Notes: generated by a model not told the origin, from the letters alone. A DNA stretch of 64,000 nt from Candidatus Bathyarchaeota archaeon (GCA_963806535.1 CAWDYC010000003.1:128001-192000); one strand, 5' to 3'. Counted from the first letter of the stretch, positions 49,000 through 64,000 are shown. A program made the numbers and translations.

Positions 49000-49417
49000 A
49001 TGGTAAAAGTTGAAGCATACGAAGTGCCAGAAGGCCTTTACTACTCTAAAGATTTTGAATGGATAAAAATCGAAGGCGACAAAGTTCGCATGGGCATCAC
49101 CGACTACGCGCAGAAATCGCTTAGAGAAATTGTTTACGCTGAATTGCCAAGCGTTGGAACAGAAGTGAAACAAGGCGAGCCTTATGGAACACTGGAATCT
49201 GTTAAAGCCGTTTCAGACCTTGTTGCAGCCATAAGCGGAACAATCCAAGAAGTTAACGAAGAAGTCCAATCAAAACCCGAAACTCTCAACGAAGACCCAT
49301 ATGAAAAAGGCTGGTTAATTGTTGTTAAACCTTCAAACTTGCAGGCAGAGCTTGCAAACCTGATGGATTTCAACGGCGCTGTTGAGTGGCATAAAGCTCA
49401 AGCCCAAAATCAAATAA
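49000..49417 (+). CDS. gcvH: Glycine cleavage system H protein
   Basis: GITDYAQ, ESVKAVSD lipoyl-lysine site and DPYEKGW. Confidence 0.93.
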
Positions 49418-49434
49418 GCAGAAGGCAAAGTTGG

Positions 49435-50782
49435 ATGGCAAGACGCATAATTGTTATTGGAGCTAACGCATCAGGCGTAGAGGCAGCTTCAGCCGCACGC
49501 AAAAAAGACCGCACAGCCGAAATCACATTGGTCACTCAAGAAAAAAATGCAGGTTACTCACGCTGCGGCTTACCCTTTGTCATTGGCGGGCAAATCGCGA
49601 AATTTACCGACTTAATTGTTTACCCACCAGCATACTTTCAAATGTTAAAGCTCAATTTACGCTGCGAAACAAAAGCCACAGCAATCAACACCAAAGAAAA
49701 AACCGTAACCATCGCATCCAAAGAGGGAGCCACCGAAGTTTTGCCCTACGACAGCCTAGTAATTGCTACTGGCGCTGACTCTTTCATGCCGCCGATTAAA
49801 GGCAAAGAAAAAGCTGGAATCCTAAGCCTCCGAGGCATCGAAGACGGCGAAAAAATCGATGCCGCAGTCAAAGCAGGCGCAAAATCAGCAGTTATTATGG
49901 GTGCTGGCTTAATCGGTTTGGAAGTCGGCGTGGCTTTGATGGAGAAAGGCTTGAAAGTTACTGTCGTGGAAATGCTGCCGCAAATTTTGCCTCAGTTGCT
50001 TGATGCTGACATGGCAAAGCATGGTTCAAGAACATTTAGAACAGAAAGGCATGCGCATATTAACCAGCAAAGGCGTCGAAGAATTCCTTGGTGAAGACAA
50101 AGTTACAGCAGTTAAAGCAGGCGGCGAAACGATTGAGGCTGACCTGTTCATCAGCGCTTTCGGCGTGAGAGCAAACACAAAGCTCGCAGTTGATGCTGGA
50201 ATTCCGTTGGGTGAAACCCGCGCAATTAAAACTAATGGACGCATGGAAACAGACGTAAAAGATGTTTACGCTGTCGGCGACTGCGCTGAAGCCCCAAACA
50301 TAATCACTCATCGCCCCATGTGCGCTCAACTTGGCACCATTGCGGTTCGTCAAGGCAAAGTAGCTGGAGCAAACGCTGGAGGAGACTATTCACAGTTTTC
50401 AGGGATTTTAGCTTCCGCAGTCACAATGCTTTTTGAGATTGAAGCAGGAAACACAGGCTTAACCGAAACAGCAGCTGCACGCAACCGAATCGAAGTCGTC
50501 ACTGGAGCCATCAGCAGCAAGACCAAAGCAGATTATTTCCCAGGCGCCAAACCAATCAAAGTAAAACTTGTTGTTGAAAAAGAATCCCAACGCATCATCG
50601 GCGGACAAGTCATCGGCGGAGAAGAAGTGACCCAACGCATAAACTGCCTCAGCTTCGCCATCCAAAAAGGCATGACCGTACGAGAACTCGCCAAAGCAGA
50701 CACAGCCTATGCGCCACCGCTCTGCGAAACATGGGAACCCATGGTTCTAGCCGCAGAAATGGTACTAATGAAACTGCGGTAA
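49435..50782 (+). CDS. NADH oxidase / CoA-disulfide reductase family flavoprotein, frameshifted
   Basis: YSRCGLP, ATG, GAGLIGLE, YAVGDC and AYAPP motifs. Confidence 0.9.
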
Positions 50783-55377: not shown

Positions 55378-56517
55378 TTGCGAACTGACTCAGGATTATC
55401 AGAAAAAAATATGCTAACTCAACTGGTCGTATCTGTATCAATTGCGCTTCAATTTGCGGCGGCAATCTACGCGTTACTACTCATTAAGGTGACAGGTAAA
55501 CAATATGCTTGGATATTGATTTCAGTAGCCCTTTTCCTCATGGGAATAAGACGATTGATTCCATTATATTATTCGATTGTTACACCTGCTAGCTACCCTC
55601 TCGACCTAACCAATGAATTAATTGGACTTTCCCTATCTTTACTAATGCTGCTCGGGGTGATTGGAATTGGCCCAATATTTAACGAGCGTAAACAAATTCA
55701 GAAAAGACTCCATCAATACTCCCAAGAACTAGAAAAAACAGTTGAAGCCAGAACAATAGACTTAAAAGAAGCAAACTCCCGTTTATTAAGCGCTAAACGA
55801 CTTGCAACCATAGGTGAACTTGCTGGAATGGTTGGACATGACCTTCGCAATCCGTTAGCAGCTATAAAAAACGCTACCTATCTTTTGAAAAAGAAAAGTG
55901 CTAATATTTCTGAAACCGACGCTAAAGCGATGATTGAAATCATCGAGAAAGGAATTGACCATTCAGACAAGATTATTTGTAATCTTCAGGATTATTCTGG
56001 TGAAATTCATCTGAAACAAAAAGAAACCGGGCTTAGGAATTTGCTGATTCAGGCTTTGGCTAAGGTGAAAATCCCTGAAAAAATAACAATTATGAATAAT
56101 ATTCCAAGCGAAATCAGCATAAAAATAGATCCGGATAAGATAGAGTGCGTTTTCGTCAACATCAGCAAGAATGCGATAGACGCAATGCCCAACGGAGGAA
56201 CATTTATTGTAAAGTACAAACAGGTATTGGAAAACGTTGAAATCTCCTTTGCCGATACTGGCGTTGGCATTCCTGAAGAGATCCTGCCGAAGATTTTCAA
56301 TCCATTGTTCACTACGAAGGCACAGGGCATGGGCTTCGGATTAGCCATAAGTAAACGGATAGTTGAAGCTCACGGAGGAAAAATTATATTTGTAACCTCA
56401 AAAGGAGAAGGAACAACGTTCACGGTAACGTTGCCTTTGGAGTCTAAACTGAGAACTGAGGATGCAAAGGTCTGGGTAGACCAACCAGAACCCATGTCAG
56501 CAATTAATGACCAATGA
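55378..56517 (+). CDS. Membrane-bound sensor histidine kinase
   Basis: Three TM helices; HDLRNPL H-box; NAIDA, DTGVG, FTTK..GMGFGL boxes. Confidence 0.93.
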
Positions 56518-56690
56518 AAAACTGACCAACCCCAACTTCTTAAAGATACTCAGCTTAATTGCATTTTCCACTTCACTCGAAATTACTCCGTCCTGTGTGC
56601 CATATCTTTCAAATTGATGTTTGGATTTTTTGAATACAAACTCTTCTAAAAGTTGAGAAACAAAATTCTAATATTAACCAATGCAATTTC

Positions 56691-57062
56691 TTAATCCAAA
56701 CAGCTTAAATTGGGCATAACATAAGCAAACTGTGCGGGCCAATCGTCTAGCCTGGTTAGGACGTTGGCTTTACACGCCAAAGGTCGCCGGTTCAACTCCG
56801 GCTCGGCCCACTCCTGATTCCCAAAAGCAGCTTGATTTAAGGTTTTTTGATTTTGTTGACCGTTACTAAATTCCGTAACGCCGTTACAGTTTTCCGTAAC
56901 GTTTAACCCAGAGTTATCAAGCAAAGCAAGTGCATCGCGCATTTGTGCTTTTTTGGCTTTTATGCGATGACGCAATACACGACTATAATCTGCATCAAAG
57001 CTTTCAGGGGACTCTAAGAACTTGTAGTTCGTATTTTGCTTAGCATTTTTTCCATTCCTCAA
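56691..57062 (-). pseudogene. Putative N-terminal fragment of an SSV-type split integrase reading into tRNA-Val
   Basis: ORF runs open antisense through the tRNA (WAEPELNRRPLACKANVL); no catalytic motifs visible, so the call rests on geometry. Confidence 0.55.
56736..56810 (+). tRNA. tRNA-Val(TAC)
   Basis: GGGCCAA...TTGGC TTTACAC GCCAA...GGTTCAACTCC...TCGGCCCA cloverleaf with one A-C mismatch in the acceptor stem. Confidence 0.92.
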
Positions 57063-57565
57063 TTAATGCAAGAAGCTAATCGTCTATTTAACACCTTGAT
57101 TGTACGCATTTTTACGCTATTAACTTTTTACGGTGTTTAATCACCGTGCGGAAGCACACCGCCTTTTAACTCAGAGGTGAAAAGGCATCAGTTGGCTTCC
57201 CTGTTTAGGGGCCCATTTTGCTTTGTTGTTTCTACGACGTTCAAAAGCCGTGTAGAAAGCAACAGTGCCACTCAGGCTTGAATAGCAAAAAGACAAAACA
57301 ACTTGCCAAAACCTTATTTGTGCTAATAATCCTCAAAACGTAATGCTTATAAAGTAAAGTGTAGTGTACATATATTAAAACAAACGCTACCTATAGAGTT
57401 AAGTGTCCGCCGCTCTAAAAGTGCGCCTTGTTAATGAAACATGGAAGGCTTAAAAAATGTGCGGACACGAGAAATATACAACAAAAAAAAGTAAAATTTT
57501 TACAACTAAGCTGGTTTTTTCATCCAGATTAAATGACACCGAACTTTCATTTGGAATGACGCCGA

Positions 57566-58375
57566 ATGCAGAGCTCACCGCTGCGAAAAAGGAGGAACAA
57601 GAGCATGCATAATATTTGGATGCGTAAAATGGAAAACTTTGACAAGGGCTTGGTTAGCTTCCAAAAATTTGATTTAGGATTTATTGGCAATCAAGTTTCC
57701 GTTGCTATTAAGACCTACGATAAGGAAGGGCTTAATCATCAGGGACCACTTGAGAATATTATGGGTCTTGTAGCAGAATTGGCTTTTGAAGAATGGCTAA
57801 AAAGTTTTGGTGGAGTTCGTGGAAAGGATTACGAATGGAACGAACGCAGAGAGGATTATTGGAACAATGACCCAAGATCTTGGGATTTCAGGTTGCTCAA
57901 GAATGGTTTAACTTTTGAAATCGGAGCGGCAAAACCTAATCATCATTTGGCCGTAATGAAAGACGCAGCGCATAAAAAAGAATCTAATTATTTTGTTCAG
58001 GTAAGGATCATTTGGTTTAACTGTAAAATCAAGGTTTTAGATAAATGGTACGTTATTAACGCCAACTCATATACTCCCTTGGAAATAAAGGGCTCAGAAG
58101 AAATAAAATCCCTTGAAGCAGCCCAAGGAATAATCCAGAATGACACAATAGGCGAGGCGCAGATCTGTGGCTTCGATAAAGTCGGCACGATTGTTAAACA
58201 AGAGAATGGTTGGGTGTTTAGCAAAGCAGGCCAAAGGGAAACACCTTTCTCAAACGGCTTCATGAAGGAATTAAGCAATTTGTGCACAAGAAGCGATTTA
58301 GCAGCCATCATAAGGCGTGCCCTCGGTCTCCGCGAAGATAACAAAGAAAGTGAAGCACGACCTTACGGCATTTAA
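57566..58375 (+). CDS. Hypothetical protein, possible PD-(D/E)XK nuclease
   Basis: GLVAELAFEEW helix then WDFRL...TFEIGAAK, resembling a restriction-nuclease core with a displaced Lys. Confidence 0.5.
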   Translation: MQSSPLRKRRNKSMHNIWMRKMENFDKGLVSFQKFDLGFIGNQVSVAIKTYDKEGLNHQGPLENIMGLVAELAFEEWLKSFGGVRGKDYEWNERREDYWNNDPRSWDFRLLKNGLTFEIGAAKPNHHLAVMKDAAHKKESNYFVQVRIIWFNCKIKVLDKWYVINANSYTPLEIKGSEEIKSLEAAQGIIQNDTIGEAQICGFDKVGTIVKQENGWVFSKAGQRETPFSNGFMKELSNLCTRSDLAAIIRRALGLREDNKESEARPYGI

Positions 58376-58426
58376 AAGCCGTGTAAAACTGAGCGCGCCA
58401 TTTTGAAAAAATACAATCTACTGTTG

Positions 58427-58975
58427 CTAAAGTAATGTTGACAAATATGAGAAATTAGCCACGACCAAGGATATCACAAGTAAGGAAAGGAATAAGACTA
58501 AGAACGTTAAAGGGATCCAACGCTCAACCAAAGTAAGCTGTGGATATCTCGTTTTTTGGCTTCCCTGGTTTAAGTAATCCCATTCTTTGGCAAATGCAGC
58601 CACAGGCAATCTTTTTTCCATTTCGTGAATTACTTTGAATTTTGCTTCACTCAGTACTCTATAACATTTAATACTGTTATTCCAAATCAGACAAAAAACA
58701 ATTCCAGAAATAGACACGAGGGCAACCCACCAAAAGTACATGTTGCCAATTGGTTTGCTAACCTGAGATAATACACCAATTATCGTTATCAAAGCCGAAA
58801 CAAGGGTTAAATAAAACGTATTTGATTTGGAACGACGCTCAGAATTATTATCAGCCATTTCAACATATAATTTATACTGCTCAAGCAAATGGTCGTTAAA
58901 TTTCTCGCCATAAGTCTTTTCCTCAATTGGAAAAAGCTTAGTTTCTTTGATACCCGTCATCTCGTTGTTAGTCAT
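58427..58975 (-). CDS. Three-TM membrane protein (RipA-family-like), putative defence effector
   Basis: LLEQYKLYVEMAD..SERR...NTFY, two TMs, W...I..YR.L..AKF.VI.EME..LP...F..EW, third TM; 4 bp downstream of the TIR gene. Confidence 0.75.
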   Translation of the reverse strand: MTNNEMTGIKETKLFPIEEKTYGEKFNDHLLEQYKLYVEMADNNSERRSKSNTFYLTLVSALITIIGVLSQVSKPIGNMYFWWVALVSISGIVFCLIWNNSIKCYRVLSEAKFKVIHEMEKRLPVAAFAKEWDYLNQGSQKTRYPQLTLVERWIPLTFLVLFLSLLVISLVVANFSYLSTLL

Positions 58976-58979
58976 CTTT

Positions 58980-59462
58980 TCACGGAGAATTAATTTCTCG
59001 GTCTATATCTTTTAAATTCCAATTCAATATAGGTGCTTTGTTGTCTTTCATAGCTTCTGGAATAGCATGATTTTTATCACGATTAATTCTAACACCAATG
59101 ACCTTCTTTCCTTGTCTGTAGGCTTCATCTATTTCCCAGTTTACCGCATTCCTCTCTGCGGTCTTTTCACCTATCATAACCACAACTACGCTCGTCTGAG
59201 CAATTCTTTGTTTGCAGTTTGTCCTCCATTTTTCATCAAATGGTTCTTTAACTGAGTAGTCCCTGAACTCAAGGTCATAATTATCGTTCTTTGCCTGCGA
59301 GCGCAAAAGGTCTACTTGAGCTTCATCATCAACATGAAAACTTATGAAAACGTTACGAAGCCGAGCTCGTTCTGCCTCATCAACAGTCCTATCAAAAGCT
59401 GCCTCTGATTCTCCAACACCTTTTGATGAACCAAGGCTATACCCGAAACTACCCCCACCCAT
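58980..59462 (-). CDS. ThsB/MTH538-like TIR-domain protein with Gly-rich N-terminal tail
   Basis: RNVFISF, DYSVKEPF, VVVMIG..T and VNWEI (catalytic Glu); GGTGG SD supports a start at 59462 (MGGGSFGYSLG). Confidence 0.9.
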   Translation of the reverse strand: MGGGSFGYSLGSSKGVGESEAAFDRTVDEAERARLRNVFISFHVDDEAQVDLLRSQAKNDNYDLEFRDYSVKEPFDEKWRTNCKQRIAQTSVVVVMIGEKTAERNAVNWEIDEAYRQGKKVIGVRINRDKNHAIPEAMKDNKAPILNWNLKDIDREINSP

Positions 59463-59519
59463 GATTACCACCATTTTGTTAAAGTCATGTTATCGCTTTT
59501 AAGGTTTTTAAGACTTACC

Positions 59520-60158
59520 TTAGCGGTGATTTGAAGATTTTGAAAGACCATTTTCTGCAGCTATGCGTTCTTTGCAAGAAATACATTCTCCGCACGATTT
59601 CTCGGTCCCAGCATGGCAAGAGTAGGTCAAATTAAGCGGCAATCCATGTTTCCGAGCAAGCATTAAAGAATCAATCTTATCCAAATTTATCAAAGGAGCA
59701 AGAATTGTAATGTTTATGCCTAAGGCAAGGCTCAGCGTTTTTTGTGTTTGTGCCAAGAAATCCTTTGTTTGATCGGGAAATATTGGATTTGCTAAGATAC
59801 CCGTTGCAACAACGTAAGCTCCCTTATCATATCCATAGGCTGCGCCGAAGGTTAGGAAAAGTAGATTCCGCGTAGGAGTGAAGGCTTCCTTTTCAATATC
59901 CAAATCTTTGTTTGTTAGACCGCTTGGTACAATTCTGCCAAAGTCGTGTGCGTTTATTCTTTCGGGAGTTAACTTAAGATAATTACAGATTTTCTGACAG
60001 GATGACCATTCCTCTTCACAGGCAAGTTGTCCATAATCTACAAATAATGGAAAAACTCTGTGCCCTTTCATTTGTAATTGTTGCATAATAACAGAGGAGT
60101 CAACTCCACCCGAGCAAAGAACTACGACTCTCAATTCCTCTTCCTCATATAATTCCAA
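59520..60158 (-). CDS. queC: QueC-family protein (Cap9-like)
   Basis: SGGVDS PP-loop, DYGQ, P.RN, FPD and TYSC...CGECISC zinc site. Confidence 0.93.
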   Translation of the reverse strand: MELYEEEELRVVVLCSGGVDSSVIMQQLQMKGHRVFPLFVDYGQLACEEEWSSCQKICNYLKLTPERINAHDFGRIVPSGLTNKDLDIEKEAFTPTRNLLFLTFGAAYGYDKGAYVVATGILANPIFPDQTKDFLAQTQKTLSLALGINITILAPLINLDKIDSLMLARKHGLPLNLTYSCHAGTEKSCGECISCKERIAAENGLSKSSNHR

Positions 60159-60832
60159 ACAGCCATGTCAAATGTTGCCATTAGTAAGCCTCTCTCCTCG
60201 CACAGTTCTTTGAGAATATCCTCAAGCTCAAGGTATATTCTGGGAGTAACAGATTTTATCTGCAGTCCATTAAGCGCGTTAATCTTTGTCAGAAATGAAA
60301 TAATGTGTGTGTCAATTATTGCGAGTTTTTTAGAATAACCTATATTTCTCAAAAAATGAGATGCTTCCTTAAGACCAATTCCAGAAATATTCTTAATTAG
60401 TGATGATCTTGCATCTTCCTCTGAACTAGAATGAGCCAAAACGCAATGCAACCATGTTTCCTCAGAAGATATGATTGTTGCTGACTTTGTAATATTTTTG
60501 GAGCGAACATTAGGGAAACGATATTTTCTTAGTTCACCATCGGTTTTCTTGGGAAAATAAATTGGCTTTGAAAGCTCTTTAGCAATTATCTTGTCGGCTA
60601 AAGGATTATCAGCTATCCATTCAACGGACAGATAGCCTCGTCTTATCAAATGCCTTACTGCTGAAAAAGCAAGCTCATATGGAACATTACTTGACAAGAT
60701 ACAAAGACATAGTTCATGCCACAAATCAGTTTCTGTCATAAGGTCCCATTTTCGATTTTCAAAGTGGAGAGCTGGTATTGTTGAGTATTCTAACAAAACG
60801 CCGTTAAATGTTTCATTATCTGCAATGAGCAT
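60131..60832 (-). CDS. N-glycosylase/DNA lyase, OGG-like HhH protein (Cap11-like)
   Basis: ELCLCILSS, YRFPN, GIGLKEASHFLRNIG and AIIDTHI, with catalytic Lys and Asp present. Confidence 0.9.
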   Translation of the reverse strand: MLIADNETFNGVLLEYSTIPALHFENRKWDLMTETDLWHELCLCILSSNVPYELAFSAVRHLIRRGYLSVEWIADNPLADKIIAKELSKPIYFPKKTDGELRKYRFPNVRSKNITKSATIISSEETWLHCVLAHSSSEEDARSSLIKNISGIGLKEASHFLRNIGYSKKLAIIDTHIISFLTKINALNGLQIKSVTPRIYLELEDILKELCEERGLLMATFDMAVWNYMRKRN

Positions 60833-60946
60833 TGGTTGAATCTCGGTTTTTATCTTTACATTTAGAATGCGCTAAAAATATATATCCTTAACTATTTTTC
60901 ATTTAATTAATTTTGATCACTTTTTATTGCATTATAGATAAATATT

Positions 60947-61957
60947 CTAAAATTTATCTATTCTATTAAGAATATCGTCACCAATTTGAACCTTCAGAGA
61001 AGCACGTAAATTGTCATAACGTATCATATTCTGCATTTTGACAACAAAGTCTTGATAATATAGCAGATTATGCAATAAAGCCCTGTCTAAATAGGCTGAT
61101 GATGCCAATTTAGGATTGCTGCAGATTCTACATTTGCAATTAATCAAATCAAGATGTGAAAAATCTTTTATTGTGTCGTCTCCGGGGTCCAAAATATGTT
61201 CGATCCAATCTAAGCTGTCGAAACTGTCAGAACCGCAATACGCATAAATTAACATTGAAATAGGGTTTCCACAACCTAAGACATGTAAAAGAAACCTTTC
61301 ATCACTTTTGTCAAGAATGTGTCTGATTTCAGTAAGAGTTTCCGCTCTTTCCAAAATGCCTTTACCGCAATCCCTTTCAGAAACAGCAATACCACAACAC
61401 AAACTGGAATACTCATCAATAAAATCACTAACTAATGCCAATTGATGGTCAACTGATTTTCCATGAAGGATCGGCAGAAAAATATTTCCACCACAGAAGG
61501 CTGATGATTCAACCGCTGCTTGCACTACATTTTCTTGGTATTGTTTAACGTTCTTGGTATTTTCCGCGGTTGGAAGAATATCGAAGCCGGTAAAGATATC
61601 CATCGTGACCTGAGAAATAACGCTTTTGTATGCTTTCATATCCCAAGTTGGATCATTCTTATTATCGCTCTCAAATACGCCGCTATCCAAAAGTAAAAAG
61701 CCTTGTTTTCTAAATTCAGCGATGCTTTGCTTAAGTTTTTCTTTTTCTTCGAGTTTGTTAATATCATAAGCTGAAAGCAATAATCGCGGATACTTATTAT
61801 GTTTTAGCATGTAAAAAAGTTCAGTCAAAGAAAATCGGTTTTTAGTACTGGACAACGATGGAAAATAGGTTGGAGTATTGAAGACCTTATTTTCAAATTT
61901 TATCTCACAAATCCTTGCAAGTTTCCCATTTTTATGTTGTATTGTTGCTTTATTCAA
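60947..61957 (-). CDS. tRNA-guanine transglycosylase-like protein (Cap10-like)
   Basis: TPTYFP, LLDSG, FDI, ILHG, HVLG, DSFDS and CKCRIC...HN zinc site. Confidence 0.87.
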   Translation of the reverse strand: MNKATIQHKNGKLARICEIKFENKVFNTPTYFPSLSSTKNRFSLTELFYMLKHNKYPRLLLSAYDINKLEEKEKLKQSIAEFRKQGFLLLDSGVFESDNKNDPTWDMKAYKSVISQVTMDIFTGFDILPTAENTKNVKQYQENVVQAAVESSAFCGGNIFLPILHGKSVDHQLALVSDFIDEYSSLCCGIAVSERDCGKGILERAETLTEIRHILDKSDERFLLHVLGCGNPISMLIYAYCGSDSFDSLDWIEHILDPGDDTIKDFSHLDLINCKCRICSNPKLASSAYLDRALLHNLLYYQDFVVKMQNMIRYDNLRASLKVQIGDDILNRIDKF

Positions 61958-62106
61958 CTAAGGCACTCCAGATCCTTATTTCAATAGTTCCTATTTGTAG
62001 GGTTATATTATAAAGAATTAACTACTAAATAGAATTATACAAAGAAACTTACCTTGAAAAGTTAGAAATAAATGATTTACTAAAGGATAGTCTGTGTGGA
62101 AGACAT

Positions 62107-62580
62107 TTGAAGAGGCTAACTTTAAGCGTAGCTCAAACAGCAATTTTCGCTTCTATTTATGCTGTTTCATCGATTTTGCTTGGGCCACTGGGATATTCAT
62201 GGATTCAGTTACGGATTGGAGAAGCCTTGACTCCCCTGCCGCTACTTTTTGGAATTCCTGCAATGGCTGGATTAACCATCGGGTGTTTTGTTACCAATTT
62301 AACGAGCCCAGTGGGTTTGCCTGACATGGTTTTCGGGCCCTTACTGACTCTAATTGCCGCATTTCTTTCTTGGAAATTAACATTTGGCAAACGCATTTTA
62401 GCTTGTTTATATCCGGTTATCATAAATGCAATAGGCGTAAGTGCCTATCTTTCATCTTTCTATGGCGTCCCATACTTGGTCACCGTTTTGACCGTTGGCG
62501 CTGGAGAGTTTGTTGCTGCAGTTATTATTGGATATCCAACATTATTGGCGTTAAGAAAATTTATGGGTAATAAAAAGTAG
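62107..62580 (+). CDS. queT: QueT-family queuosine-precursor transporter
   Basis: A.FA.IY, IQLRIGEAL..LP, GLTIGC..TN, DMVFG, PVIINA and GE motifs. Confidence 0.87.
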   Translation: MKRLTLSVAQTAIFASIYAVSSILLGPLGYSWIQLRIGEALTPLPLLFGIPAMAGLTIGCFVTNLTSPVGLPDMVFGPLLTLIAAFLSWKLTFGKRILACLYPVIINAIGVSAYLSSFYGVPYLVTVLTVGAGEFVAAVIIGYPTLLALRKFMGNKK

Positions 62581-62712
62581 AGATTCTTTTGTTTCGTCGT
62601 GACTTTACTCAGGCCTCAAATCCCTCGCTCACTCAATGAGGGTACGTCATAGTGAGTTGTGCACGTGATTGAACACCGTGCAAAAGCGTAGAGCCGTGAG
62701 CTTTGGAGCCAT

Positions 62713-63236
62713 CTATGAAATCTGACTAATACATTCCTGCAACAGTTGCCGATAAGTTGCTTGCCAACCGTTTGAAGGGAATGGTATAGATATTTTGTTC
62801 AGTAATCTCTCGCCAAAACCGGCTTCTTCAAGTGCAAGCTTGACTGGGGCAAATAAATTATTTTTCAAAATAATGATTCTTTCTGGCTGAAGGCTTCTAA
62901 TATCATTTACAAGCCTTGGAATTTGATCTTTTAGAACTCTGTTTTTTCCGCAATAGGCAACTTGTTGACTGGTCTATAGCTGGCATCTATCAAGAAGAAT
63001 CCTCTTGATTGGAACTCTTTTAGCTGGGTGTTTTTGTCAGTGCCGACAGGTAATTTGCCACAAGGAATTTTCAATGCTTTCATTGTTTCCCTGAATAAAC
63101 AGCCACGACCGGTTGCTGACTCAAAATAAAAGTATCCGCCGCCTTCGGGTGGTGACTCGCCAATAAGAAGGAATTCAATGTCTTTGCCTATTCGTCGTGG
63201 GTCATATTTGTCCCTTGCTTCAATATAGTCTTGCAT
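62713..63236 (-). CDS. Uracil-DNA-glycosylase-like superfamily protein, frameshifted at about 62935
   Basis: LLIGESPP..GYFY and GFFLID; second frame gives L.PERIII...IPFPSNGW. Confidence 0.65.
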
Positions 63237-63625
63237 GTCAACAGCTACGGCTTCTGATTTATTAGATTTAGCGGATAAATACGATGATTCTTTGTCGCCA
63301 ACTTGTTTAATCTTAATAGCCTATGTACTTGTACGGTGATTGAACACCGTGAAGAAGCATAGGCCGTAGTAAAAAGCGGAGATTAGCATTAACCGATCAA
63401 GTCAAACATATTTGAAGCCTAATATGTTTCAGGGAGCTTGCATTAGCACCTTAAAGCACTGTTGTGTTTCTGTACGGTGTTCAAACACCGTGGCTAAACA
63501 TAGGCTAAGGACAAAGGCGACGGAAGACCAAGCATGGTCGAATCCTACTTAAGCTATGATCCAGTTGAACTGCTAAAATATTCGACCGGCTTTCTCGACC
63601 GAAAAAATCAAAATGAGTCATTTTT

Positions 63626-63829
63626 TTACTTATGCCAGAGCCTACTTAATAGATAGATTACAGCGGTAGCTGCAAGCAGCACTGGAACTATGAACACATT
63701 AGCTTCCATCCACTGCCAAATTGGTCCCGGTAACCCAAACATACCTATGCCATAACCAGCTAAGACTACAATCCAAACAAAACTATACAGGGCGATTACT
63801 GCAATCCATACCTTCATGAGCTTACGCAT
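63626..63829 (-). CDS. Small two-TM membrane protein
   Basis: MRKLMKVWIAVIAL... hydrophobic pair; start is probably internal to the tracked ORF. Confidence 0.55.
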   Translation of the reverse strand: MRKLMKVWIAVIALYSFVWIVVLAGYGIGMFGLPGPIWQWMEANVFIVPVLLAATAVIYLLSRLWHK

Positions 63830-63917
63830 TTTCTCACTTTTGAAACCACTTATAATCCATAGGTTATCCATCAACCACATAAAAGCTTTTGACTTATCCG
63901 TGCAAGAGGACACAAGG

Positions 63918-64000
63918 TTGCCGAAGCGATATGTTAACATAAAATTGCCTGTTGAGCTTGCAGACGAAGTTGACAAAATCGTGGATAAGAAGCTTCTGGG
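63918..64000 (+). CDS. Ribbon-helix-helix (CopG-like) protein, truncated by the window edge
   Basis: Manual translation MPKRYVNIKLPVELADEVDKIVDKKLLG. Confidence 0.7.
   Translation, partial: MPKRYVNIKLPVELADEVDKIVDKKLL

Follow-up and report, generated by a model that had tools for sequence, protein, structure and literature searches.

In type IV systems of cyclic oligonucleotide-based antiphage signaling (CBASS), in which protein deazaguanylation was discovered in 2025, the QueC-family ligase Cap9 ligates 7-carboxy-7-deazaguanine to Gly2 of the cGAS/DncV-like nucleotidyltransferase (CD-NTase), generating an N-terminal 7-amido-7-deazaguanine (NDG) (Wassarman et al., bioRxiv 10.1101/2025.04.06.647259). 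Every type IV CD-NTase is extended at its N-terminus by a stretch starting with M(G/S)G(G/S)GG, and the modified tail is held by the TGT-family protein Cap10 via D73, S74, D122 and K154, the catalytic pair being D248/H226; the target of the Cap10 transfer is unknown in type IV CBASS, and the zinc site that stabilizes nucleic-acid binding in TGTs is not present in the solved Cap10 (10.1101/2025.04.06.647259). Thoeris operons with cap9, cap10 and cap11 are also reported, in section 9 and in the legends of Figs. 6G and S10B of a late-2025 preprint (Yirmiya et al., bioRxiv 10.64898/2025.12.03.692087), where AlphaFold 3 has the TIR protein binding Cap10 (ipTM 0.79) and Cap9 (ipTM 0.62), as the CD-NTase does; in these sections the operons are predicted ones, outside the set tested by those authors. 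Here, an operon with this gene set is described at positions 58427-61957 of a 64,000-nucleotide stretch (the window) of a Candidatus Bathyarchaeota archaeon genome (GCA_963806535.1, CAWDYC010000003.1:128001-192000; assembly of 2.95 Mb in 12 contigs, 91.75% complete). The small-subunit rRNA of the host fits the archaeal Rfam model best, with 1487.9 bits over its full length, in agreement with an archaeon. From the comparative analysis, this operon probably encodes a Thoeris-type abortive-infection system, consisting of a ThsB TIR synthase and an 8xMP effector, in which the accessory module of type IV CBASS would control the TIR, and which is carried on a ~9-kb element.

The original prediction, made from the sequence of the window, listed five co-oriented intact genes at this site, and this is confirmed by the listing of the open reading frames (ORFs) and by the Pfam and PADLOC searches. 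The five minus-strand ORFs have zero internal stops and are, in the order of transcription:

60947-61957, minus strand: operon gene 1, Cap10-like protein of the TGT family, 336 aa (Pfam TGT 1.8e-9; PADLOC TGT 4.3e-23)
60131-60832, minus strand: Cap11-like homologue of the OGG/HhH-GPD glycosylases, 233 aa (Pfam Ogg-HhH 7.8e-36)
59520-60134, minus strand: Cap9-like ATP-dependent ligase of the QueC family, 204 aa (Pfam QueC 1.4e-38; PADLOC QueC 5.3e-35)
58980-59462, minus strand: ThsB-type TIR protein, 160 aa (Pfam ThsB_TIR, PF08937, 7.8e-20; PADLOC ThsB 9.1e-19)
58427-58975, minus strand: membrane protein of the 8xMP family, the presumed effector, 182 aa (Pfam PF24838 5.2e-38)

The spacings given in the original prediction are also correct: 4 nt separate the TIR stop codon from the ATG of 8xMP, and 28 nt are common to the OGG and QueC ORFs in their listed extent, or 4 nt (TTGA) when the start TTG 60134 is used. 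The Cap9-like ORF is open up to 60158 (212 aa as first listed), and its start has been moved to TTG 60134, the likely start codon, because the orthologues begin with MRVVVL; this candidate start is preceded by GAGGAAGAGGAA. The TIR ORF is open to 59474 (164 aa as first listed) and very probably starts at its second ATG (59462), giving MGGGSFGYSLG. This start is preferred because the TIR entry in a public protein collection is exactly 160 aa long, which is the length from the second ATG, and because the homologues share this length and the Gly-rich beginning; among the 120 best TIR homologues, 51 are exactly 160 aa long, and in 81 the Gly-rich motif stands at the very beginning. The G+C content falls to 0.351 at 60001-62000, compared with ~0.41 for the window.

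The nearest solved relatives of the Cap9-like and Cap10-like proteins are the type IV CBASS proteins themselves. The top Protein Data Bank (PDB) match of the Cap9-like protein is Cap9 (9nto, 3.5e-20), with Bacillus subtilis QueC (3bl5) behind at 2.7e-14, and the sole PDB sequence match (phmmer) of the Cap10-like protein is Cap10 (9ntn, 4.8e-5), with H225 and D247 aligned with the catalytic H226 and D248 of that structure. With type IV CBASS the operon shares a conserved PP-loop, DSG pocket and catalytic Asp/His pair, and it also has the optional Cap11. The claim that the catalytic motifs are retained holds across the orthologue sets of Cap10, Cap11, Cap9 and TIR, in which these motifs are invariant or nearly so: D91-S92-G93, D126, H225 and D247 in Cap10 (12/12 orthologues), K155 and D174 in Cap11 (11/11), and SGGxDS, RN and the four zinc cysteines in Cap9 (12/12). 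In the TIR, W109 is nearly invariant (≥90%) and E110, which we take to be the catalytic glutamate, is invariant (68/68). The TGT zinc motif CxCxxC...H (C274/C276/C279/H296) is kept in 12 of the 12 Cap10s of this clade, which sets them apart from the solved Cap10, and the CxCxxC motif was also not found in the Cap10 of a Bacillus CBASS or in a TIR-Cap10 fusion of Rhizobium.

By their scores, the three operon enzymes are not the housekeeping QueC, ArcTGT and Ogg, with which the original prediction had allowed that they might group. All three fall below the cut-offs of the corresponding NCBIfam equivalogs: 124.3 bits for Cap9 against QueC (cut-off 150.3), 37.9 bits for Cap10 against ArcTGT (cut-off 350) and 133.6 bits for Cap11 against Ogg (cut-off 183). 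The host has its own enzymes elsewhere in the genome, these being QueC (214.9 bits), ArcTGT (284 bits, in a 544-aa open frame) and QueD, and the host QueC outscores the Cap9-like protein in the QueC profile search (214.9 versus 132.6 bits); a search for the host QueE (TIGR03365) gave sub-threshold radical-SAM matches only. In pairwise BLAST comparisons, the Cap10-like protein scores 32 bits with the host ArcTGT, 75.5 bits with the CD-NTase-linked Bacillus Cap10 and 126 bits with the Rhizobium TIR-Cap10 fusion. For the Cap11-like protein, the top PDB matches come from archaea, namely the Ogg2-type N-glycosylase/DNA lyases 3fhg and 3fhf.

What distinguishes the locus from type IV CBASS is the absence of a CD-NTase, as had been noted in the original prediction for the operon and its surroundings. 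The Pfam model SMODS (PF18144), the single CD-NTase model used, matches nothing at E≤0.01 anywhere in the 2.95-Mb assembly, and no nucleotidyltransferase is seen by Pfam among 20 flanking ORFs, including those in the 12 kb past the window end, where a cognate CD-NTase had been thought conceivable. Because this defining component is absent, the locus is not filed as type IV CBASS: it is an example, within a mostly archaeal set, of Thoeris with Cap9, Cap10 and Cap11, in which the ThsB TIR bears the tail and the signal would be NAD-derived instead of a cyclic oligonucleotide.

The N-terminal tail of the TIR is the feature by which it resembles the CD-NTases, these being signal synthases with a Gly-rich N-terminal tail followed by a helix. 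The TIR extension comprises ~35 residues, with the Gly-rich tail and a predicted helix (residues 18-32) preceding the TIR domain; the AlphaFold 2 model has the β/α TIR fold after the tail and helix, and the PDB matches of the TIR include the ThsB structures 6lhy and 9b7d. The tail, MGGGSFG, matches the NDG-site motif M(G/S)G(G/S)GG, and it is predicted to be modified; it also resembles the CdnD peptide GGSGGSFGSGF of type IV CBASS, and in the canonical type IV CBASS of a Bacillus mycoides plasmid (Cap9, Cap10 and cyclase) the cyclase begins with MGGSGG. Among 713 candidates, 661 are TIR homologues at E≤1e-5, and among the 120 best of these, the extension reaches 25 aa or more in 118 and the Gly-rich start pattern is seen in 107. 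In the genome loci described below, a Gly-rich start, scored with one fixed pattern, is present in 10/12 Cap-linked TIRs versus 1/29 Cap-less TIRs (L034 and L036, having no β-A motif, were left out of this count and L008 was set aside). The two Cap-linked TIRs that are missed by the fixed pattern carry tail variants, and most Cap-less TIRs begin straight at MRNVFISF, the first β-strand. In the metagenome loci, the Gly-rich start is found in 58 of 66 evaluable TIRs. The scan of viral contigs with the TIR alignment gave no relative. In two metagenome contigs (L118 and L119), a homologous TIR adjoining 8xMP is fused to an N-terminal domain of ~270 aa, which replaces the Gly-rich tail, and no Cap genes are present on these contigs.

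The neighbourhoods were surveyed in species-representative genomes, scanned with the window proteins and with hidden Markov models built from their orthologues (44 loci), and in metagenomes (80 loci, 72 non-duplicate; counts are from loci with enough flank). The complete set of five genes was found at 10 of the 44 genome loci (L003, L005-L007 and L010-L015), including that of one bacterium, Ca. Brocadia (L012). L004 is truncated inside Cap9, the Cenarchaeum locus (L022) has Cap9 and Cap10 without Cap11, L008 begins inside the TIR and is not judgeable, and in 31 genome loci there are no Cap genes within 8 kb. In the metagenomes, Cap9 is present in 52 of 54 evaluable loci, Cap10 in 32 of 33, Cap11 in 34 of 40 and 8xMP in 54 of 60. 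The hosts are mostly archaea. This neighbourhood search, which the original prediction had called for, finds the linkage of Cap9, Cap10, Cap11 and TIR in many genomes and metagenomes, so that the TIR-membrane protein pair is not a companion of the three enzymes in this genome only. In the tree of the TIR domains (49 rows, IQ-TREE), the main Cap-linked group has a support of 91/92 and comprises 12 rows plus L008 and L009; a Rhizobiaceae pair and the Cenarchaeum TIR fall outside it, and because of these placements the tree requires at least three gains or losses of the Cap linkage. A single origin of this linkage among the TIRs is not claimed.

Several arrangements depart from the usual one. Two metagenome contigs (L134 and L136) have an extra TIR-8xMP pair upstream of Cap10, a third (L148) has 8xMP upstream of Cap10, and in Cenarchaeum a TIR-8xMP pair is followed by a TIR with the tail MGAGG, Cap9 and Cap10 being on the opposite strand. 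In the metagenome-assembled genome (MAG) of Ca. Brocadia, 8xMP (L012, 8423-8939) is split into two overlapping frames, by a frameshift or a sequencing error.

The closest described systems are the Thoeris-Cap operons of Yirmiya et al., which, in the sections cited above, have the same TIR, effector and cap9/10/11 genes and no CD-NTase, with the TIR proposed to replace the CD-NTase as the client. The original prediction had considered this architecture to be undescribed; that claim of novelty is superseded, because the preprint, in those sections, already describes the gene set. Literature searches combining QueC with TGT, OGG and TIR domains, or with TIR and SMODS, gave no paper. The original prediction's reading of the locus as a hybrid, in which a type IV CBASS-style Cap9/10/11 module is combined with a Thoeris TIR and a membrane effector, is supported by the comparative evidence. 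The example modelled in the same sections is from a Pseudomonadales bacterium, whereas the present loci are mostly archaeal, and the present locus is set apart from that text by its 8xMP effector, by a Cap10 with a zinc site and by the frequent link with QueT. Modest additions come from the covariation of tail and Cap genes, the retention of the zinc site, the association with QueT and the carriage on an integrative element. As in Thoeris, there is a ThsB-family TIR with a conserved adjoining gene for a presumed effector.

Three further sets of relatives can be compared. The Cap-less TIR-8xMP pairs of, for example, Mycolicibacterium, Dehalococcoidia, Nitrosopumilus and Patescibacteria are homologous to the present pair and differ from it in having no Cap genes and, but for one TIR, no Gly-rich pattern. 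In the plasmid collection, the best tblastn matches of Cap9 (39-42% identity) and Cap10 (28%) are Rhizobiaceae plasmids (NZ_CP120216.1 and NZ_CP104156.1), in which a TIR-Cap10 fusion of 467 aa comes first and Ogg, QueC and ThsB come after it. Agrobacterium has, next after ThsB, a SLATT_3+SLATT_1 protein and another TIR, and the Rhizobium stretch has a DUF4231-annotated gene at its edge; the ThsBs adjoining Cap9 begin with MGGGSSG and MGGGGGG. These loci differ from the present one in that Cap10 is fused to an N-terminal TIR and has no CxCxxC, in that the effector is a SLATT protein (Agrobacterium) and not 8xMP, and in that the TIRs are on a separate branch. In QatABCD, the QueC-family protein QatC deazaguanylates its partner QatB (PMC13082051), a protein with no recognisable motif. 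The operon differs from QatABCD in that its PADLOC match is the QueC model and its nearest solved relative is Cap9, and no family suggesting the QatA ATPase or the TatD/QatD nuclease is found in the Pfam scans of the 20 flanking ORFs. In NZ_CP069372.1, a QueC-like gene is flanked on one side by a 443-aa protein, which ends in a nucleoside 2-deoxyribosyltransferase domain, and on the other by a 220-aa family-less protein; CP084739.1 has the same gene order, its upstream gene being annotated as an 86-aa nucleoside 2-deoxyribosyltransferase, and this context may be a further QueC-based system.

From the observed gene content, conserved catalytic residues, tail and linkage, a mechanism can be proposed, each step of which is inferred by homology. 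After removal of the methionine, Cap9 and ATP would ligate 7-carboxy-7-deazaguanine to the α-amine of Gly2 of the TIR, generating an NDG. The Cap10 pocket (D91/S92, D126) would bind the NDG tail and the following helix, keeping the TIR inactive, and the TIR would be poised on Cap10 for a transfer to a target upon infection, catalyzed by D247/H225. The released or relocated TIR would then turn NAD+ into a cyclic adenosine diphosphate ribose-type signal, which would activate 8xMP, leading to its oligomerisation and to membrane damage. Cap11 probably undoes the transfer, acting as a negative regulator, and QueT may provide the 7-deazaguanine precursor.

The effector step is the weakest part of this functional reading. 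The Pfam family 8xMP is the octameric membrane protein family, and the operon protein scores 130.4 bits against a gathering score of 30, covering positions 1-135 of the 136 of the profile. Three hydrophobic helices are readable in its sequence, and the AlphaFold 2 model is all-helical, with a mean pLDDT of 87.4. There are 0 matches of this model in the PDB at E≤0.001 (Foldseek) and 0 matches of the sequence in the PDB sequences at E≤1 (phmmer), a ligand-binding domain is not recognisable, with Pfam giving 8xMP alone, and a literature search on 8xMP and octameric membrane proteins gave nothing relevant. We infer, as the original prediction did, a pore-forming effector. The possibility that 8xMP is a SLATT effector was considered and rejected: hhalign gives a probability of 0.3% with the SLATT_3+SLATT_1 protein, Pfam has no SLATT match at E≤0.1 and PADLOC gives RTasSLATT at no better than E 0.013 and 0.047. 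Next to the TIR, 8xMP is found in 30 of 43 genome loci, being present in 11/12 Cap-linked and 19/31 Cap-less ones; the contig-edge locus L008, outside this count, has 8xMP too. In 14 of the 68 8xMP-bearing metagenome loci, 8xMP is convergent with the TIR and not co-directional.

The surroundings of the operon have the following features:

62107-62580, plus strand: QueT-family transporter, candidate sixth component (Pfam QueT 1.4e-35), divergent from Cap10
61958-62106: AT-rich spacer of the divergent genes Cap10 and QueT, 149 nt, presumed promoter region, as read from the sequence
56736-56811, plus strand: tRNA-Val(TAC) (ARAGORN, Rfam), of which the 3' 45 nt (56767-56811) are attL
56812-57062, minus strand: possible int(N) fragment of an SSV-type integrase, frame open through att, no Pfam or PADLOC match

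The operon and QueT ride on a ~9.05-kb element integrated in the tRNA-Val gene. The 45-nt direct repeat of attL recurs at window-equivalent 65818-65862, with 44 of 45 positions identical. Close to this right repeat, on its inner side, there is an archaeal phage integrase domain at window-equivalent 64978-65496 on the minus strand. The frame from 57062 is in frame through att with an ORF at 65439-65861 on the minus strand, giving 224 open codons at the virtual junction, and the stretch 56812-57062 is possibly the N-terminal part of an SSV-type integrase that was split by its own integration; an extra frameshift or an assembly error would have to be assumed, because another frame holds the catalytic-domain ORF (64978-65496). 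A partial (3') third copy of the repeat is present at window-equivalent 67623-67667, 1.8 kb beyond the right repeat, which suggests that it is the remnant of a second, tandem integration; a 531-aa NosD-like β-helix ORF lies between the right repeat and this third copy. Apart from the operon and QueT, no cargo of the element is recognisable, and its remaining ORFs have no Pfam or PADLOC match. The island of which the original prediction spoke is this element, and PADLOC found no other defence gene in the 7 further ORFs of it that were scanned, nor any match in the other three of the ten proteins submitted (two large window ORFs and one just past attR). One of the element ORFs (57566-58375, plus strand) encodes 269 aa and is convergent with 8xMP; it is matched by neither Pfam nor NCBIfam nor PADLOC and is not conserved in L003. 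This locus, in another Ca. Bathyarchaeota MAG, shares with the window a 4.1-kb block, consisting of the operon and QueT, at 72% nucleotide identity, and its related element has an att-like site and an integrase, plus SRA-HNH, a McrB-N-like gene and type I restriction-modification genes. Elsewhere in the window, two overlapping ORFs at 49000-50782 (plus strand) are an apparent frameshifted GcvH-fused dihydrolipoyl-dehydrogenase-type flavoprotein, the domains being GCV_H and Pyr_redox_2, followed by the end of Pyr_redox_2 and Pyr_redox_dim.

QueT is present in 11 of the 27 evaluable non-duplicate metagenome loci. It is usually divergent and upstream of Cap10, the stop-to-stop frames being 86-134 nt apart (three loci have 5, 17 and -21 nt instead); two loci have it downstream, one of them 4 nt past 8xMP. 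The loci with the divergent layout may share one ancestor, and in the window the region between the two genes is presumed to act as promoter region. QueT would feed Cap9. Elsewhere in the host genome, a QueT gene is directly beside the housekeeping QueC (G000:C5:27483-28632); because the housekeeping QueC also adjoins QueT, the QueT-QueC adjacency is independent of the defence operon in this lineage. No preQ1-type riboswitch was found near QueT in the Rfam scan of 56000-64000 (E≤1), which gave, besides the tRNA-Val, a pair of matches below the threshold: the first is within Cap10 and the second on the opposite strand of the tRNA. The literature search found no paper joining QueT and CBASS, and QueT does not occur in PMC13082051.

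Several observations weigh against the reading of the operon as a Thoeris-type system under Cap control. The Cap9-like protein is closer to the host QueC (94 bits) than to the one CD-NTase-linked Bacillus Cap9 compared (77 bits) and is not clearly separated from QueC by sequence alone. Because the Bacillus Cap9 is no closer than the host QueC, the Cap9 assignment rests on the context, the PADLOC model and the PDB ranking; the two scores fit the remark in PMC13082051 that Cap9 keeps the ancestral catalytic core. The module is not always complete, Cap9 being missing in 2 of 54, Cap10 in 1 of 33 and Cap11 in 6 of 40 evaluable metagenome loci, and Cap11 is dispensable for CBASS defence (10.1101/2025.04.06.647259). 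A Gly-rich N-terminal extension of the TIR also occurs without Cap genes within the flanks, in two to three cases, these being L009 and L016 (genomes) and L144 (metagenome). When the MAGs of L009, L016, L008 and L004 were searched for Cap10, three of them gave ArcTGT-like frames of 526-628 aa only, and that of L009 gave nothing; the genomes of L009 and L016, in which no Cap10 was found, are incomplete. The AlphaFold 2 confidence is low for the tail and helix of the TIR (pLDDT <50 for residues 1-33), the CD-NTase negative comes from the one model PF18144 in a genome with 91.75% completeness, and the effector mechanism of 8xMP is a guess, because its fold has no solved relative. No published experiment on TIR-linked Cap systems or on the present locus was found.

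Some of these observations can also be read in other ways. The module could act on nucleic acid, with a Dpd-like insertion or removal of 7-deazaguanine in DNA or tRNA, the TIR-8xMP pair being a separate toxin or abortive-infection pair that travels along. This would agree with the invariant zinc motif of Cap10, which is lost in the solved Cap10, the Bacillus Cap10 and the Rhizobium fusion, with the linkage of a precursor transporter, QueT, and a DNA glycosylase homologue to the operon, and with the stand-alone TIR-8xMP pairs of the Cap-less loci. However, an independent module does not predict that the Gly-rich tail follows the Cap genes, the order of Cap9 and TIR is tight and conserved, the nearest solved relatives, Cap9 and Cap10, modify proteins, and no other Dpd-type family is present in the 20 flanking ORFs, with PADLOC being blank on the 7 element ORFs; the nucleic-acid reading is therefore considered to be distinctly unlikely. 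It is also conceivable, albeit unlikely, that the TIR itself is the NAD+-depleting effector, freed by the Cap module, and that 8xMP is a membrane anchor, a sensor or an immunity partner. Many bacterial TIRs are NADase effectors, as noted in section 5 of the preprint of Yirmiya et al. (10.64898/2025.12.03.692087), and the absence of a recognisable ligand-binding domain and of a PDB fold match for 8xMP would fit such a role. Against it, the TIR is short and belongs to the ThsB family (PF08937), it is paired with 8xMP across bacteria and archaea in an arrangement of two genes such as is typical of the signal/effector pairs of Thoeris, and the CBASS Cap9/Cap10 module regulates a signal synthase, not an effector.

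A chance adjacency of housekeeping genes for archaeosine (QueC, ArcTGT) and for 8-oxoguanine repair (Ogg) with an unrelated TIR-8xMP pair is very improbable. It has in its favour that the nearest solved relatives of Cap11 are genuine archaeal Ogg enzymes and that Cap9 has the full QueC catalytic signature, as well as the score with the host QueC given above, but a better QueC and an ArcTGT in its 544-aa frame are present elsewhere in the host, all three enzymes are under the equivalog cut-offs, the cluster is on a mobile element and its synteny is conserved across phyla. The Thoeris-type system with a Cap-controlled TIR is the preferred reading. An extension of it is doubtful: QueT would be a working sixth component, immunity thus depending on the imported precursor, and the zinc-site Cap10 of this mainly archaeal clade would engage nucleic acid, transglycosylating the NDG-tagged TIR, upon infection, onto a guanine position (viral or tRNA), with Cap11 excising the conjugate and thereby resetting the system. 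If true, this would name the target class of Cap10 and tie nucleobase salvage to immunity.

In the probable Thoeris-type system described here, the same Cap9/10/11 module as in type IV CBASS is wired to a TIR and not to a cyclase, and this is the case in a large, mostly archaeal family. The occurrence of the module in a TIR context therefore points to a regulator that is portable between unrelated signal synthases, and its client would be recognisable by a Gly-rich N-terminal tail, gained and lost together with the Cap genes. The recurrent QueT, the zinc site of Cap10 and the small integrative element would provide handles on the substrate supply, on the target and on Thoeris-type immunity in archaea.

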